This document shows, piece by piece, positions 43,645-63,785 of a stretch of DNA of 64,000 nt. Within the stretch, counting starts at the first letter, position 1, and each line of letters begins with the position of its first letter. Location of the stretch: positions 809-64,808 of the forward strand of contig JBDRFG010000106.1 in the NCBI GenBank assembly GCA_043819135.1. Direction: 5' to 3'. The notes below the pieces were generated by a model. The model was not told the DNA's origin, searched no databases, and saw only the letters and a program-made list of their open reading frames with translations. A program made the translations under genes and the position numbers. This DNA is from Candidatus Eiseniibacteriota bacterium (lineage in GTDB: Bacteria; Joyebacterota; Joyebacteria; Joyebacterales; Joyebacteraceae).

Positions 43645-44577
43645 GTGCTGACTGCAAGCGTCGGCGTGATGGCATACAACGAAGAGCAGAACATCGACAA
43701 GCTGCTGGCCGCGCTCACCAGCCAGTCGCTCGAGCGCGTGGATATGCGTCAGATAGTCGTCGTGTCCAGCGGCTCGACCGATCGTACGGACGACATCGTT
43801 CGCGAATGGGCCGACAAAGACCAGCGCATCTCGCTCATCAGGCAGGAATCGCGCGAGGGCAAGGCGTCCGCCATCAACCTGTTCCTCGACGCGGCCGACG
43901 CCGACGTCTTCGTACTCGAGAGCGGCGACACCATCCCCGCGCCCGACTGCGTGGAGCACATGCTGGCGCCCTTCGAGAACCCGAATGTGGGGATGACCGG
44001 CGGCCGGCCGACACCCGTCGACGACCCGAACACCTTCATGGGATTCGTGGTGCACATGCTCTGGCGTCTTCACCATATGCTGGCGCTCAAGTCGCCGAAG
44101 CTCGGAGAGATGGTCGCGTTTCGGTCCTTCGTCCGTTCGATCCCGCCTGATACGGCCGTCGACGAAGCCAGCATAGAGGCCATCGTGATCGAACGCGGCA
44201 GTTCCCTGGCCTACGTACCTGAAGCGATCATCTACAACAAGGGCGCGTCGACGGTGGGCGATTTTCTCAAGCAGAGACGGCGCATATACGCCGGTCATAT
44301 CTGGCTGTCGAAGGTCCAGTCCTACGAGGTCTCGACGAAGAGGGTCGGAGGCATCGTCTCCGTCCTCCTGGAAGACCTCACGCCTTCGCCGCGCGCGCTG
44401 CTCTGGACCGCGGGCGGCGTCTTCCTCGAGTTCGTGGGGCGTCTTCTGGGCGCGATCGACTACTACGTGATGAAGAAGAACCCCTATACCTGGGAAGTGT
44501 CCCGAAGCACAAAGAGCCTCGATGCGCCCGCGACTCACGACACAGGAGCCAGGGGGGCGGGGGCGGTCGATGGTTGA
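43645..44577 (+). CDS. family 2 glycosyltransferase
   Basis: The N-terminal GT-A motif is VGVMAYNEEQNI..., with a DxD-like ESGD and R/K..YAG. This is the first gene of the glycan locus. Confidence 0.65.
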   Translation: MLTASVGVMAYNEEQNIDKLLAALTSQSLERVDMRQIVVVSSGSTDRTDDIVREWADKDQRISLIRQESREGKASAINLFLDAADADVFVLESGDTIPAPDCVEHMLAPFENPNVGMTGGRPTPVDDPNTFMGFVVHMLWRLHHMLALKSPKLGEMVAFRSFVRSIPPDTAVDEASIEAIVIERGSSLAYVPEAIIYNKGASTVGDFLKQRRRIYAGHIWLSKVQSYEVSTKRVGGIVSVLLEDLTPSPRALLWTAGGVFLEFVGRLLGAIDYYVMKKNPYTWEVSRSTKSLDAPATHDTGARGAGAVDG

Positions 44578-45655
44578 GATTCTCGCGAAGATCCCACTCT
44601 ACAAGTTGGCTCACGCGACCGGGTGGCCAAGGATCCTCCCGCTCAACCTCACGGTCAGCGTGACCTACCGCTGCAACTCCAGGTGCCTCACGTGCAACGT
44701 CTACACCAAGGACGCTCGTGAATTCACGGCCGAGGAGTTCGACCGAACGTTTCGCTCGCTCGGCCGCGCGCCTTACTGGTACACGATGAGCGGCGGGGAG
44801 CCGTTCCTTCGGTCCGACCTTCCCGACATCTGCGAGAGCGCGTACCGGAACGGACGCCCCGGGATCATCAACATTCCGACAAACGGGCTTCTCTCATCCC
44901 GGATCCCAGCGATGGTAGAGGACCTTGCCGGACGCTGCCCGAAGACGCAGGTCATCATCAACCTGTCGCTGGACGGCGTCGGAGAGGAGCACGACCGGAT
45001 CCGTGGCAGAGACGGGAGCTTCGAGAAGGCCGTCGAGACCTACCGGGGATTGAGGGCGCTCAAGTCACCGAACCTCACGGTGGGCGTTCACACGGTCATC
45101 TCGGTGCACAACGTCGAGCGAATACGATCGATCTACGAATACGTCGTCCGCGAACTCGCGCCGGACTCGTTCATCACGGAGATAGCCGAGGAGCGCGTGG
45201 AGCTCGAGACTCTCGGGGCGTCTATCACACCGACGGCAACCGCTTACGCCGTGGCCGTCGACTTTCTGATCGCCAGGATCAAGGAGCAGGACTACTCAGG
45301 CATCTCGCGCGTCACCCAGTCGTTCAGGGTGCGCTACTATGAGCTCGTGAAGCGATACCTCGCGTCGGGCGCGCAGCCGATCCCGTGCTATGCGGGAGTG
45401 GCGTCGGCCCAGATCGCGCCGGACGGACACGTGTGGTTCTGCTGCATCAAGGCCGAGTCGATGGGAAATCTGCGCGACGTCGACTTCGACTTCAGCCGCA
45501 TCTGGTACGGCGAGAAGGCGATGGAGGAACGGAAGAGGATCCGGGCGGGCGAGTGCGCGTGTCCGCTGGCGAACGCCGGCTACACGAACATGCTGATGCA
45601 CGTGCCGACCGTCACCGGCGTGGCCTTCGAGGTCGCATCGGGAGGGCGGCGGTAG
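44570..45655 (+). CDS. radical SAM protein with Cys-rich SPASM-like C-terminal region
   Basis: The CxxxCxxC triad CNSRCLTC is present with YTMSGGEPFL (the glycine-rich SAM motif). C-terminal cysteines are CYAGV...WFCC...GECACP. The start at 44570 overlaps the upstream GT2 gene by 8 nt. Confidence 0.7.
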   Translation: MVEILAKIPLYKLAHATGWPRILPLNLTVSVTYRCNSRCLTCNVYTKDAREFTAEEFDRTFRSLGRAPYWYTMSGGEPFLRSDLPDICESAYRNGRPGIINIPTNGLLSSRIPAMVEDLAGRCPKTQVIINLSLDGVGEEHDRIRGRDGSFEKAVETYRGLRALKSPNLTVGVHTVISVHNVERIRSIYEYVVRELAPDSFITEIAEERVELETLGASITPTATAYAVAVDFLIARIKEQDYSGISRVTQSFRVRYYELVKRYLASGAQPIPCYAGVASAQIAPDGHVWFCCIKAESMGNLRDVDFDFSRIWYGEKAMEERKRIRAGECACPLANAGYTNMLMHVPTVTGVAFEVASGGRR

Positions 45656-61590: not shown

Positions 61591-63785
61591 CTCGATCTCA
61601 GGGGCCCGACCTCTCGATCGTCATCGTCGGCTACAACAGCCTGCCGGAGCTGGGCGAGTGTCTGGCGTCCGTGCGCGATTCCGACGGCTCCGCGCGCATC
61701 GAGGCTGTGGTCGTCGACAACGCCTCGACGGACGGGACGGTCGAGTTCCTCGAGCGGGAGCACCCCGAGGTCCGCCTGGTGGCCAACGGCAGGAACGTGG
61801 GGTACTCCAGAGCGGTCAATCAAGGCATCGCCGAGGCGCGAGCGGGCTACGTCCTCGTCCTCAATCCGGACATCGTGGTCCTTCCCGGCGCGCTCGACCG
61901 GCTCGTTTCCTTCATGGACGAGCGCCCCAATGTGGGAATAGCCGGCTCGAAGCTGCTGAATCCCGACGGCTCGCTGCAGCACTCGTGCAGGCGGTTCTAC
62001 ACGTTCTGGACGCTCGTGCTTCGAAGGACACCGCTAGGGAGGCTCTTCAAGAACGGACGCACGATCTCGAACTACCTCATGCTCGACTTCGATCACGAGC
62101 GATCCAGGGAGGTTGACTGGGTCATCGGGGCCTGCATGATCGTGCGGAAGGCCGCGCTGGCGGACTTCGGGGGAATGGACGAGCGCTTCTTCCTCTATTT
62201 CGAGGACGTGGACTGGTGCTACAGAGTGTGGCAGAGCGGCTGGAAGGTCTGGTACGTGGCCGACTCGGTCATGCGGCACCGCCACGCGCGTGAGAGCGCG
62301 CGCCCCGGGCTGTCGAAGCAGCTCATCGCGCACGGCCTCTCTATGATCCACTTCTACGAGAAGTGGGGGAAGGCGATCTATCGGTTGAAGAAGTACAGGC
62401 GCGTGCTCACGAACTCGGTGCTGCTTGTCTCGGACCTGGTCGCCATCAACGGCGGCTTTGCGCTGGCGTACGTTCTCAGGTCTAGTTTGAAAGGGCTCCT
62501 GGAAAAACCGATGTTCGGCGTGTCCGTCTACGGCACGTTCCTGGTGTTCGCCAACCTGGTGTTCGCGTTCTCGTTCGCCTTCTTCGGCCTCTACGGCGCC
62601 ACCATCGAGAGGGAGAGGGCGTCCGATGTGACAATGCGGGTCTTCCGGGCGACCGTTGTATCCGCCATCATCCTGATGGCGAGCACGTACCTCACGTCAC
62701 AGACGGTCTACTCGCGAGTCCTTGTCGGGGCGTTCTGCGTGCTTGCGGTGGTGCTGACCGTGGTCCTCCGCATGGGGCTCAAGAGGCTCCACAGCATGGT
62801 GCGCGCCGGGCGGTTCGACCTTACCAGAGTGGCGGTCGTGGGCACCGACGAGACGGCCCGCCGCGTGGCGGAGCGGCTGCTCCAGCATTCAGCTCTGGGC
62901 TACGACCTCGCGGGACTCGTGTCCACGAACGGCGGTGACCGGCCGCCGGGATTCCCGGTGATCGGCCGCCTCGAAGAACTGCCGGAGTTCATCGAGAAGT
63001 ACCGGATCGGCGAGGTGATATTCGCAGATCCCGACGTATCCCACGAGAGGATCGCCGACTTCCTGCTCAAGGCGAGGAGGAGCGCCGTCGACGTCAAGAT
63101 GGTCTCGGGGTTGACGTCAATACTCACACAGCGCGCGAAGGTAGAGGAGTTTCTGGATCTCCCCGTCGTTGCTTTTGAACGTGAGGCGTTGCTGCGTGCG
63201 GGCGCCGTAGCCAAGCGAGCGCTGGACGTTGTCGGCGCCGCGGTCCTCCTGGTCGCCTGGACGCCCCTCCTGATTATCACGTCCGTCACGACGCTGGTCG
63301 GCAGACGAACAGGGCCCTTCTCGGCTGTTCCCAGAGCCGGGCTCGAGGCAGAGACCTTCGGCATGTACCGTCTCAACCGCGACGGCAAGGCGACCGCGCT
63401 CCGGAGGTTCGTCCTCCGGCACGGGTTCTCCCTGTTCCCGGCGGTCATCAACGTCCTCAAGGGGGAGATGAGCTTCGTCGGGCCGCGAGCAGTCGCTCCG
63501 GTCGATCTGGAGACACTCAGCTTGCGGGAACGCCTGAGATTCGACGCGCGACCCGGCCTCACCGGCCTCTCCCAGGTCTCGGCGGCGGAGGCCGCGAGTT
63601 CACACGACGAACTCAGGGCTCTCGACGCCTACTACGTGCAGAACTGGTCGCTGAGCGGGGACGTCAAGATCGTGATGAGATGGTTCATGCAGTGTCTGCT
63701 CGGGTGGGCCGATGTGCCTTCGGACGAGGGCTTGCCCGCCAAGTCGGTGACGTCGGACGTGTCCGCCCACAAGGACGGCGTCTGA
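61530..63785 (+). CDS. fusion protein: N-terminal GT2 glycosyltransferase + C-terminal polyprenyl-phosphate hexose-1-phosphate transferase (WbaP/CpsE-type PGT)
   Basis: Residues ~20-290 form a GT2 domain (IVIVGYNSL...[10 protein letters not shown]...[12 protein letters not shown]). About 4 TM helices follow, then the PGT catalytic domain (VGPRAV...[10 protein letters not shown]...[17 protein letters not shown]). The start (ATG 61530 or GTG 61542) lies inside the 3' end of the upstream gene. Confidence 0.7.
   Translation: [751 protein letters not shown]

Follow-up and report, generated by a model that had tools for sequence, protein, structure and literature searches.

A conserved locus of Candidatus Eisenbacteria that probably makes a polyprenol-phosphate-linked envelope glycoconjugate

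The window analyzed here is a 64,000-nucleotide stretch of DNA from Candidatus Eiseniibacteriota (contig JBDRFG010000106.1), in which positions 43645–63785 hold 16 consecutive + strand open reading frames (ORFs) with high third-position GC. These genes, numbered g1 to g16, belong to a locus that probably makes a core cell-envelope glycoconjugate on polyprenol-phosphate carriers, phylum-wide in Candidatus Eisenbacteria. As glycan-related genes continue on the 3' side in relatives, the functional locus is predicted to span ~28 kb and ~23 genes, and the window cuts it short. Gene content and order are fixed across ~28 species, which argues against a serotype-type O-antigen or capsule locus. Instead, the sequence comparisons point to a conserved core envelope locus and not to a variable O-antigen or capsule cluster. 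The locus is also larger and more ancient than first described.

Conservation is seen at several levels. Named homologs of g4, g10 and g16 come from metagenome-assembled genomes (MAGs) of Candidatus Eisenbacteria, and one 144,625-bp NCBI contig of such a MAG encodes proteins 100% identical to g4 and g16. The gene tables of three contigs with g10 homologs at 93%, 71% and 57% identity hold all 16 genes in unchanged order and share the same flanks, which are nusB and a metallophosphoesterase gene on the 5' side and a gene for a Reg_prop protein on the 3' side. Complete 16-gene synteny with these flanks is found in loci L001–L004. One genome per GTDB species was scanned, which gave 42 loci, and gene presence was read from a tblastn matrix. 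Here, each sufficiently long Eisenbacteria contig carries every locus gene that it can hold, and this extends over ~28 species-level genomes at 44–95% amino acid (aa) identity. Given such strict synteny, the arrangement is not due to chance. The initial annotation, made from the sequence of the window, had staked its reading on co-conservation of these genes in relatives, and the gene neighborhoods bear this out strongly. Recent horizontal transfer was rejected, with a GC content that is flat through the locus and with conserved flanks. Inside the locus the GC skew falls from ~0.1 to ~0–0.06 and the AT skew goes negative with GC content unchanged; this shift is probably an effect of membrane-protein codon content.

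The genes are listed below with their Pfam or NCBIfam scores, where GT is glycosyltransferase and TM is transmembrane segment.

g1, 43645..44577, + strand: soluble GT2 with a PgaC/NodC/MftF-like N-terminal half; PF00535 90.6 bits, below all NCBIfam cut-offs; start uncertain (43645, 43666 or 43669)
g2, 44570..45655, + strand: radical S-adenosylmethionine (SAM) protein with a SPASM/twitch auxiliary-cluster domain; PF04055 63 bits, PF13186 26 bits
g3, 45713..46870 (start may be 45731), + strand: DUF362 protein (LarA clan) with a C-terminal five-Cys cluster; PF04015 154.9 bits
g4, 46874..47728, + strand: class I SAM-methyltransferase-fold protein; Pfam matches below cut-offs
g5, 47725..48819, + strand: UPF0104/PplT (MprF-type) flippase-like protein; PF03706 142.9 bits, TIGR00374 91 bits (cut-off 43.2)
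g6, 48812..49792, + strand: extended short-chain dehydrogenase/reductase (SDR), NDP-sugar epimerase or 4,6-dehydratase; PF01370 193 bits
g7, 49796..50749, + strand: ArnC/GtrB/PgfS-like polyprenol-phosphate GT2, 317 aa; PF00535 106 bits
g8, 50733..51935, + strand: GT4 (GT-B); PF13692 104 bits, PF00534 88 bits; start set after the 400-aa L001 ortholog
g9, 51937..52833, + strand: WbbL/GlfT1-like GT2 of the type acting on lipid-linked acceptors; PF00535 65 bits
g10, 52838..54259, + strand: lipoprotein of the AlkP superfamily, a phosphodiesterase/pyrophosphatase of the nucleotide pyrophosphatase/phosphodiesterase (NPP) type; PF01663 103 bits
g11, 54294..55400, + strand: GT9-family glycosyltransferase with two invariant four-Cys clusters; PF01075 70.6 bits (cut-off 22)
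g12, 55397..57184, + strand: membrane-anchored NPP-type AlkP enzyme with ~5–6 N-terminal TM; PF01663 96 bits
g13, 57228..58493, + strand: MOP-superfamily (Wzx-like) flippase, ~10–12 predicted TM; PF01943 29.2 bits (cut-off 28.2)
g14, 58490..60880, + strand: YfhO-family GT-C, ~10 predicted TM; PF09586 58.9 bits (cut-off 28.5)
g15, 60877..61590, + strand: DPM1/PpgS/AglJ-like polyprenol-phosphate GT2, 237 aa, without TM; PF00535 120 bits
g16, 61542..63785, + strand: WbbL-like GT2 fused to a large phosphoglycosyl transferase (PGT) scaffold (4 TM, PF13727 and Bac_transf), 747 aa
g17 (truncated to its 5' part by the window edge), 63820..64000, + strand: secreted Reg_prop beta-propeller protein with the signal peptide MRALLLAGIVAALGTASGAQA

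Extent and surroundings of the locus

The locus is tightly packed. With starts set to the orthologous gene calls, the distances at the 15 junctions from g1 to g16 are -8, +57, +3, -4, -8, +3, -17, +1, +4, +34, -4, +43, -4, -4 and -49 nt. Genes overlap at 8 of these junctions, and at 12, overlaps included, the distance does not exceed 4 nt. The median over all 15 is 3 nt, as opposed to 29 nt at the 38 upstream junctions of the same window. Co-directionality is not locus-specific, since the + strand holds all but one of the ~56 genes predicted in the window; the sole - strand gene in positions 1–64000 lies at ~29270–30520, an extreme strand bias. The same-strand, closely spaced layout of the initial annotation is confirmed for all 16 ORFs, and its domain assignments were all recovered when every ORF was annotated with Pfam models.

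The 3' limit of the 16-gene set is the window edge, where the 17th gene begins at 63820. In four or five relatives (L057, with L049, L052, L053 and L058) the locus continues for ~8 kb beyond this point. Here, g16 is followed by the Reg_prop propeller, a PglF/PseB-like 4,6-dehydratase, a DegT aminotransferase and a FemAB/Acetyltransf_6 protein, and further 3' by a GT-C of family GT87, a GT4 and a GT2, after which an unrelated gene is reached. The best NCBIfam matches of the L057 DegT protein are ArnB (379 bits, cut-off 631) and PseC, while TIGR03019 is the sole NCBIfam match of the L057 FemAB/Acetyltransf_6 protein (75.8 bits, cut-off 260).

Related operons are found in other phyla. A metagenome scan with g16 as query returned many non-Eisenbacteria contigs with a compact operon of g6-, g7-, g8- (or g9-), g14-, g15- and g16-like genes, in that order and at 30–60% identity, and g16 homologs at 40–44% identity carry the names Candidatus Latescibacterota and Krumholzibacteria. 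The 3.8-Mb Latescibacterota genome CP070763.1 carries, in this sequence, UPF0104, a TMEM260-like GT-C with tetratricopeptide repeats (TPR), SDR, GT2, GT4, YfhO, GT2, the GT2-PGT fusion, an 832-aa Reg_prop protein with a C-terminal domain (CTD) and DegT, and this extended order recurs in other contigs. The wider operon common to Latescibacterota, Krumholzibacteria and metagenome contigs comprises the SDR, ArnC-like GT2, GT4, YfhO, DPM1-like GT2 and GT2-PGT fusion, to which are added a PorZ-like propeller with a type IX secretion system (T9SS) tail, a 4,6-dehydratase, an aminotransferase and a VimA-like acyltransferase. Of all proteins of the locus, g15 is the most conserved, with 76–92% identity across Eisenbacteria and 53–62% in other phyla. 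The TMEM260-like GT-C with TPR also lies inside the related operon of L060, L070, L081, L088 and L097, in addition to L129 (951–3521, CP070763.1); bacterial homologs of this type appear to be uncharacterized.

Gemmatimonadota MAGs retain g7, g8, g9, g10, g11, g14 and g15. There, a Glycos_transf_4 (WecA-type) gene takes the place of g16 and a MurJ-like MOP protein replaces g13. In L006 and L038 of this phylum, positions 1–7600 ahead of the related locus hold genes for a sulfatase, for an ABC ATPase and its 548-aa partner, for a sulfotransferase-like protein and for a member of the penicillin-amidase family. These preceding genes suggest that a related glycan is tailored and exported in another way in Gemmatimonadota.

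Because a compact core is shared with other phyla, the Eisenbacteria locus is best read as an expansion of a wider system of the Fibrobacterota–Chlorobiota–Bacteroidota (FCB) lineage. By this comparison, g9–g13 would have been inserted between g8 and g14, g1–g4 added upstream, and the TMEM260-like enzyme replaced by GT87. The locus is therefore not the self-contained 20-kb unit first proposed, as it enlarges a smaller FCB-lineage operon and runs past the window. The interpretation in the initial annotation is borne out in part: the gene set is unusual, and the strictness with which it is conserved speaks for a core structure of the envelope and not for an accessory novelty.

On the 5' side, a YfcE-like metallophosphoesterase gene (42897–43622, +) directly precedes g1 and occupies the same place in all Eisenbacteria loci; its protein scores below the YfcE cut-off. 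It lies 10 nt from nusB and 22 nt from g1. The metallophosphoesterase UpsH of B. subtilis frees undecaprenyl phosphate (Und-P) from Und-PP-linked polymers (PMC11898649), and by analogy a carrier-recycling role for the upstream enzyme is conceivable. An FMN riboswitch (RF00050, 38590–38709, +, 111.6 bits) precedes ribD-ribE-ribBA-ribH-nusB, and the gaps between this unit and the glycan locus are small, with no clear transcription break. Elsewhere in the window, a 357-aa sugar-1-phosphate nucleotidyltransferase with a hexapeptide C-terminus (14167–15240, +) could provide an activated sugar. The window also holds a tRNA-Gln(UUG) gene (19696–19769, +) and selA, for L-seryl-tRNA(Sec) selenium transferase (31050–32462, +, 437 bits); the organism probably uses selenocysteine.

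Enzymes encoded by the locus

None of the 16 proteins reaches the curated NCBIfam equivalog cut-off of a characterized pathway, and Pfam and NCBIfam models detected no Wzy, Wzz, ABC transporter, WaaL, WaaA or Lpx family among them. Both results agree with the initial view of an unusual gene set that lacks a polymerase, a chain-length regulator, an ABC exporter and lipopolysaccharide (LPS) core markers, and that is not a textbook O-antigen, capsule or teichoic acid cluster.

The suggestion that the product contains heptose is not supported. No GmhA, HldE, GmhB or HldD gene for ADP-heptose, and no Kdo or lipid A gene, was found in the window or the related loci. The SDR g6, a member of the cross-phylum core, has LegB, RmlB, GalE and TviC as its best NCBIfam matches, all below cut-off, and reaches 103.6 bits against the heptose-epimerase model (cut-off 274.6). 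Likewise, g11 scores 71.6, 68.4 and 54.5 bits against models of the LPS heptosyltransferases (GT9: WaaC/WaaF/WaaQ), below the respective cut-offs of 134.6, 185.3 and 170.2. Eight Cys residues of g11 (C9/C18/C24/C27 and C334/C337/C342/C348) are invariant and are kept in the Gemmatimonadota orthologs too, which suggests metal or Fe-S sites; to our knowledge, eight such residues are not a feature of classical heptosyltransferases.

The GT2-PGT fusion g16 resembles the large monotopic PGTs WbaP and WcaJ in its 4-TM bundle (TM segments at 297–415), its PF13727 nucleotide-binding DUF (63.3 bits) and its Bac_transf fold with the re-entrant helix region (PF02397, 90.5 bits). The large-PGT architecture and GT-fused Bi-PGTs have been described (PMC10942596), and g16 shares with the latter a fused GT domain. 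It differs from WbaP and WcaJ in its catalytic residues, as alignment to WbaP structures places GFSLFPAV opposite SLDELPQL, so that the Asp-Glu dyad is absent, and the segment with the KF(R/K)(S/T)M motif is deleted. In Eisenbacteria homologs the residue pair at the dyad positions is SL, SV, DA, SS, ST, SR, DR, NG, TR, ER or AR, and as they vary in this way the positions are taken to be unconstrained. The dyad is likewise absent from all operon-linked homologs of other phyla, which read VS or VN and carry a deletion of ~27 aa; dyad and motif are thus gone in all operon-linked members of the family. In contrast, GT2-PGT fusions that do not lie beside YfhO and g15 keep both the DE dyad and KFRSM.

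As the Asp-Glu dyad is absent, the PGT domain is probably not an initiator, and g16 is probably a pseudo-PGT with an inactive PGT domain. The WbbL-type motifs of the N-terminal GT2 read as intact, and the 3' end of g15 overlaps the start of g16 by 49 nt. The pseudo-PGT may hold its GT2 domain at the membrane or on the carrier lipid, and g15, which has no TM, is perhaps anchored by it as well. No description of a comparable PGT-derived pseudo-enzyme was found in the literature searched.

The reading of g7 and g15 as two predicted polyprenol-phosphate sugar synthases, with g14 as a YfhO-family GT-C, was part of the initial annotation and is sound. The best NCBIfam matches of g7 are ArnC (205 bits, cut-off 529) and PgfS (156 bits). 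It ends in a hairpin of two TM segments at ~232–287 and is conserved in Eisenbacteria, Gemmatimonadota and Latescibacterota-type loci. The top NCBIfam matches of g15 are all dolichyl-phosphate (Dol-P) or Und-P glycosyltransferases (AglJ, PgfS, DPM, PpgS and ArnC). The two synthases are paired with two GT-Cs, YfhO and GT87 in Eisenbacteria and YfhO and the TMEM260-like enzyme in Latescibacterota. In g14, which passes PF09586, the acidic residue D59 in the first outer loop after TM1 is D or E in 11 orthologs from three lineages. A sequence search of the PDB with g14 gave no match, and its sole NCBIfam matches are weak C-terminal ones to S. mutans PgfM1 and PgfM2 (29 bits, with cut-offs of 1400–1500). 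The GT2 g9 has the rhamnosyltransferase model TIGR01556 as its best NCBIfam match (66 bits, below cut-off).

Two proteins are candidate flippases. The L004 ortholog of g13 also matches PF13440. The other, g5, scores above the cut-off of the flippase-like domain model TIGR00374, and in Latescibacterota, too, the related operon begins with a UPF0104 gene. Lipid flipping has been proposed for UPF0104/PplT proteins (bioRxiv 10.1101/2022.03.11.483950; PMC12713373), and one accompanies a glycolipid synthase in gpgSDF (PMC12713373). A hopanoid side-chain reading (HpnA/B/H/L-like) of g5–g7 with g2 was rejected, as the Hpn models score 40–70 bits against cut-offs of 225–380 and HpnB gives no match to g7.

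The two proteins initially called AlkP phosphodiesterase-like keep their family, and can now be described as extracytoplasmic NPP-type paralogs, one a lipoprotein and one TM-anchored. They are 34% identical (E 3e-78) and share the C-terminal ending LGYIE. The g10 protein has the lipobox LLPLAG|C, and its D60, S99, D284, H288, D342 and H343, which are the NPP metal and nucleophile residues, are invariant in 24 homologs. Its AlphaFold2 (AF2) model (pLDDT 86) has ENPP1, ENPP3, ENPP6 and the Xac (Xanthomonas) NPP as top folds. As lipobox or TM helices occur together with invariant NPP residues and an NPP fold, the predicted target of g10 and g12 is an extracytoplasmic phosphodiester or pyrophosphate bond, at which they would catalyze hydrolysis or transfer.

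With its N-terminal multi-TM region and extracytoplasmic domain, g12 has the layout of LtaS/EptA/OpgB-type phosphotransferases. An LtaS/EptA-type assignment is not backed by its family (Phosphodiest 96 bits versus Sulfatase PF00884 25.2 bits, cut-off 25) or by the fold of its paralog, since no LtaS or EptA structure is among the top 50 folds of the g10 model. A further candidate, in which g2 would be an anaerobic sulfatase-maturating enzyme (anSME) acting on these paralogs, was rejected. The nucleophile motifs are S-P-Q-M-W in g10 and S-P-R-I-W in g12, not C/S-x-P-x-R, and the best 25 of the 45 NCBIfam matches of g2 include no anSME model.

The g1–g4 genes appear to be specific to Eisenbacteria. 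The g1 gene is kept in all Eisenbacteria loci. The non-Eisenbacteria loci examined, most of which end before the region upstream of UPF0104, gave no g1 ortholog, with weak generic GT2 matches only, and no homolog of g2, g3 or g4. Invariant Cys residues are found in g2 (a CX3CX2C motif at C35/C39/C42, then C88, C273, C291, C292, C329 and C331) and in g3 (C294, C297, C350, C354 and C370), and DUF362 shares its Pfam clan with LarA/DUF2088 (PMC11770544). The AF2 model of g4 (pLDDT 86) has a class I methyltransferase fold, with the sugar O-methyltransferases RebM and AtmM as best PDB folds (TM-score ~0.5). The 120 g4 homologs among the matches listed all share 55% identity or more with it, and those that carry a name come from Eisenbacteria. 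A methyltransferase of the Gemmatimonadota locus was considered as a g4 ortholog and discarded; the match covers 70 residues (E 1e-5) and the two are unrelated beyond the fold.

Alternative products

The acceptor cannot be read from sequence, and other products have to be weighed against the core envelope glycoconjugate favored here. One is a glycolipid that anchors type IX secretion cargo, an analog of the A-LPS/A-LS of P. gingivalis, made by the locus together with its continuation. The linking sugar would be an aminoacylated 4-amino-6-deoxy-hexose produced by the dehydratase, the aminotransferase and the VimA-like FemAB protein, and the propeller would pass the glycolipid to the sortase. 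We regard this as doubtful, with a minor share of the probability, although several features fit.

The propeller gene g17 always lies directly 3' of g16 homologs (in Eisenbacteria, Latescibacterota and many metagenome operons), and it encodes a signal peptide, Reg_prop repeats and a T9SS type-A CTD, which ends all forms of the family. In the 450-aa L057 ortholog, Reg_prop scores 50.9 bits and the CTD, at 35.4 bits, is above the TIGR04183 cut-off of 23. A profile made from the long forms matches the PorZ structure 5m11 (E 1e-19). Downstream, a PglF-like enzyme and DegT are followed by the acyltransferase whose only NCBIfam match, TIGR03019 (pepcterm_femAB), is also matched by VimA, which in P. 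gingivalis adds the aminoacyl group to the T9SS linking sugar (PMC7468200). The anchor of that species is now described as one pentasaccharide unit without polymerization (PMC13086638), and this would fit a Wzx without a dedicated Wzy. The likeness to the A-LPS/A-LS system comprises the FCB lineage, an unpolymerized oligosaccharide made with a Wzx-type flippase, a PorR-like DegT, a VimA-like FemAB enzyme and an adjacent propeller with CTD, PorZ-like in architecture.

The match is, however, at superfamily level only, as the L057 propeller reaches 74.8 bits against the PorZ model (cut-off 260) and the FemAB protein falls equally short of its own cut-off. Bacteroides hybrid two-component system (HTCS) sugar-sensing double propellers outscore PorZ (E 1e-31), and the Eisenbacteria form has one propeller whereas PorZ has two. 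CTD proteins are abundant in FCB genomes, so the propeller could be cargo or a glycan-binding protein. Wbp genes (WbpA/B/D), VimE, PorU and WaaL were not seen in the loci examined, and of the P. gingivalis components the Wbp dehydrogenase and acetyltransferase, VimE and VimF, an active WbaP, Wzy and WaaL are all lacking here. The P. gingivalis pathway, in turn, operates without YfhO and polyprenol-phosphate sugar synthases, and the key genes lie outside the window, in relatives only. A T9SS cargo-anchor glycan is therefore attractive but unproven, and we hold it to be rather improbable. A broader form of the idea, for which the odds are poor, extends to the non-Bacteroidota FCB phyla Eisenbacteria, Latescibacterota and Krumholzibacteria. 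There, the anchor glycolipid would carry a new sugar made by the VimA-like enzyme, with an in-operon PorZ-like propeller, YfhO and GT87/TMEM260-type decoration, NPP glycan-phosphate transferases and the pseudo-PGT scaffold.

A second alternative is general protein O-glycosylation, in which the GT-Cs would move polyprenol-phosphate-linked sugars to Ser/Thr of exported proteins and the other GTs would extend or supply the glycan. Here, g6, g7 and g14 parallel the epimerase, PgfS and PgfM of S. mutans, with PgfS the second-best match of g7 and PgfM1/M2 the sole matches of g14. YfhO-type protein O-glycosylation is documented (PMC12041528), sister-phylum operons encode the TMEM260-like GT-C with TPR, TMEM260 is a protein-specific O-mannosyltransferase in animals (PMC10214176), and the conserved secreted propeller nearby could be a substrate. 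Yet the Pgf matches are far below cut-off, the TMEM260-like gene was not found in the Eisenbacteria loci, and GT-C sequence does not reveal the type of acceptor. The many cytoplasmic GTs, the MOP flippase and the NPP enzymes would be superfluous for the transfer of a simple O-linked monosaccharide. We consider this product unlikely.

An Arn-like modification of the LPS core or lipid A has a similarly small chance of being correct. In this case, GT9, GT4 and GT2 enzymes would make an oligosaccharide resembling an inner core, the ArnC-like GT2, aminotransferase, SDR, flippase and GT-C would attach an amino sugar to lipid A or core, and the NPPs would remodel phosphates. ArnC and ArnB are the best matches of g7 and of the L057 DegT protein, GT9 is typically an LPS-core family, the extended locus has a family-level analog of each Arn step, and phylum-wide conservation suits a core structure. 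In addition, a Lip_A_acyltrans gene lies ~8 kb downstream in Latescibacterota. On the other hand, both Arn scores are below their equivalog cut-offs, ArnA, ArnD, ArnT, WaaA and Lpx were not found in or beside the Eisenbacteria locus, and g11 with its eight invariant Cys is an atypical GT9. Lipid A-core is exported by MsbA, and a MOP flippase and a PGT-derived protein would not be expected.

An ordinary Wzx/Wzy O-antigen or exopolysaccharide cluster with polymerase, chain-length regulator, ligase and initiating PGT elsewhere or undetected is very improbable. In its favor, the locus includes a member of the PGT family along with a Wzx-like MOP flippase and several GTs, the genes for initiating enzymes (WecA, for instance) often lie apart from clusters of this kind, and Wzy proteins are difficult to detect by profile. 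Against it, O-antigen and capsule loci are hypervariable, while this one is fixed over ~28 species, is flanked by housekeeping genes and does not deviate in GC content. The PGT lacks its dyad, the window holds no unassigned multi-TM protein besides g5, g12, g13 and g14, and Wzy, Wzz/PCP, OPX, ABC and ligase families are absent from the 16 proteins and the 8 kb downstream in L057, which for Wzy is a weak negative.

Proposed pathway and its relation to known systems

In the pathway that we infer from the observed domains, the chemistry and the order of steps are our proposal. A lipid-linked oligosaccharide would be built at the cytoplasmic face by g1, g8, g9, g11 and the GT2 domain of g16, starting from a primer made by a PGT encoded elsewhere. 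The presumably dead PGT domain of g16 would serve as a membrane or carrier-lipid scaffold that may anchor g15, and the MOP flippase g13 would carry the intermediate to the periplasmic face. In parallel, g7 and g15 would each load a sugar on polyprenol phosphate, one of them probably tailored by the SDR g6, and the UPF0104/PplT protein g5 is a candidate flippase for these polyprenol-phosphate sugars. YfhO g14, together with the GT87 enzyme encoded past the window in relatives, would then decorate the acceptor outside the membrane, following the logic of Arn and the Gram-positive multi-component systems. The g10 and g12 enzymes would form or cleave a phosphodiester or pyrophosphate linkage in the product, and g1–g4 may form an Eisenbacteria-specific tailoring module.

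Several points weigh against this pathway. As no protein is at an equivalog cut-off, all substrate assignments are by family analogy. The initiating transferase was not found in the window or the fetched loci, the searches being limited to loci around the query genes, and the loss of the DE dyad is strong sequence evidence that falls short of proof of inactivity. None of the 16 proteins has a GtrA-family match (Pfam), with the UPF0104 protein g5 and the MOP protein g13 as candidate substitutes; the Wzx call for g13 is marginal at 1 bit over its cut-off (29.2 versus 28.2), and the flippase role proposed for g5 is drawn from a single, putative precedent. The downstream continuation was read only in relatives at 57–75% identity and not in the source contig. 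With regard to co-transcription, every match in the sigma-70 promoter and terminator scans fell within coding sequence, and such scans are uninformative for an organism of the FCB lineage.

The locus is an uncharacterized variant of lipid-carrier/GT-C glycosylation logic and not a member of a known system, because no equivalog cut-off is reached and a GtrA-type flippase is lacking. The GacH–L module includes a Wzx-type flippase and a periplasmic AlkP-superfamily enzyme, as here. More generally, the Firmicutes systems CsbB/GtcA/YfhO (for lipoteichoic acid), GacI/J/K/L and PgfS/PgfE/PgfM1/PgfM2 share with the locus a polyprenol-phosphate GT2, a flippase and a YfhO GT-C, and in Pgf an SDR epimerase also lies beside the GT2. 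YfhO systems of this kind carry out multi-component transmembrane glycosylation (PMC8035078). The Eisenbacteria locus differs from them in its presumably diderm FCB host, in the lack of a GtrA/GtcA flippase and in the presence of two synthases with two GT-Cs. It also has five further GTs, the pseudo-PGT, enzymes of the NPP type and not of the LtaS type, and the radical SAM/DUF362/methyltransferase module, and all similarity scores are far below the family cut-offs.

The Arn system (PmrHFIJKLM) is alike in having an SDR, a DegT aminotransferase, N-acyl transfer, an ArnC-like Und-P GT, a flippase and a periplasmic GT-C. It differs in that ArnA, ArnD, ArnE/F and ArnT are missing here, the GT-Cs are of the YfhO and GT87 families, and scores are below the cut-offs. 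With gpgSDF of P. aeruginosa and with MprF/PplT, the locus shares a GT gene near a UPF0104 gene (g1 and g5) with tailoring enzymes between them. The difference is that GpgS is reported as a novel glycosyltransferase (PMC12713373) and that no deacetylase is found here. The flippase activity of GpgF is putative, and g5 could equally flip a polyprenol-phosphate sugar.

We know of no cultured members of Candidatus Eisenbacteria and its neighbors, and of no description of their cell envelopes. As neither the content nor the order of the locus varies across the phylum, its product must be a central structure of the cell surface. Should this prove to be a routine core oligosaccharide, the main gain would be a useful annotation for a dark-matter phylum. 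The finding is at present moderately interesting, and would be more so if the T9SS-anchor or pseudo-PGT readings are true. YfhO-type periplasmic glycosylation, so far studied in Gram-positives, appears to be conserved in FCB-lineage phyla. A GT2-PGT family without the catalytic dyad, linked to YfhO and two synthases in several phyla, would, if true, be a pseudo-enzyme in lipid-carrier glycobiology. Finally, the linkage to a PorZ-like T9SS protein and a VimA-like enzyme could, if true, extend an anchoring chemistry known only from oral Bacteroidota.

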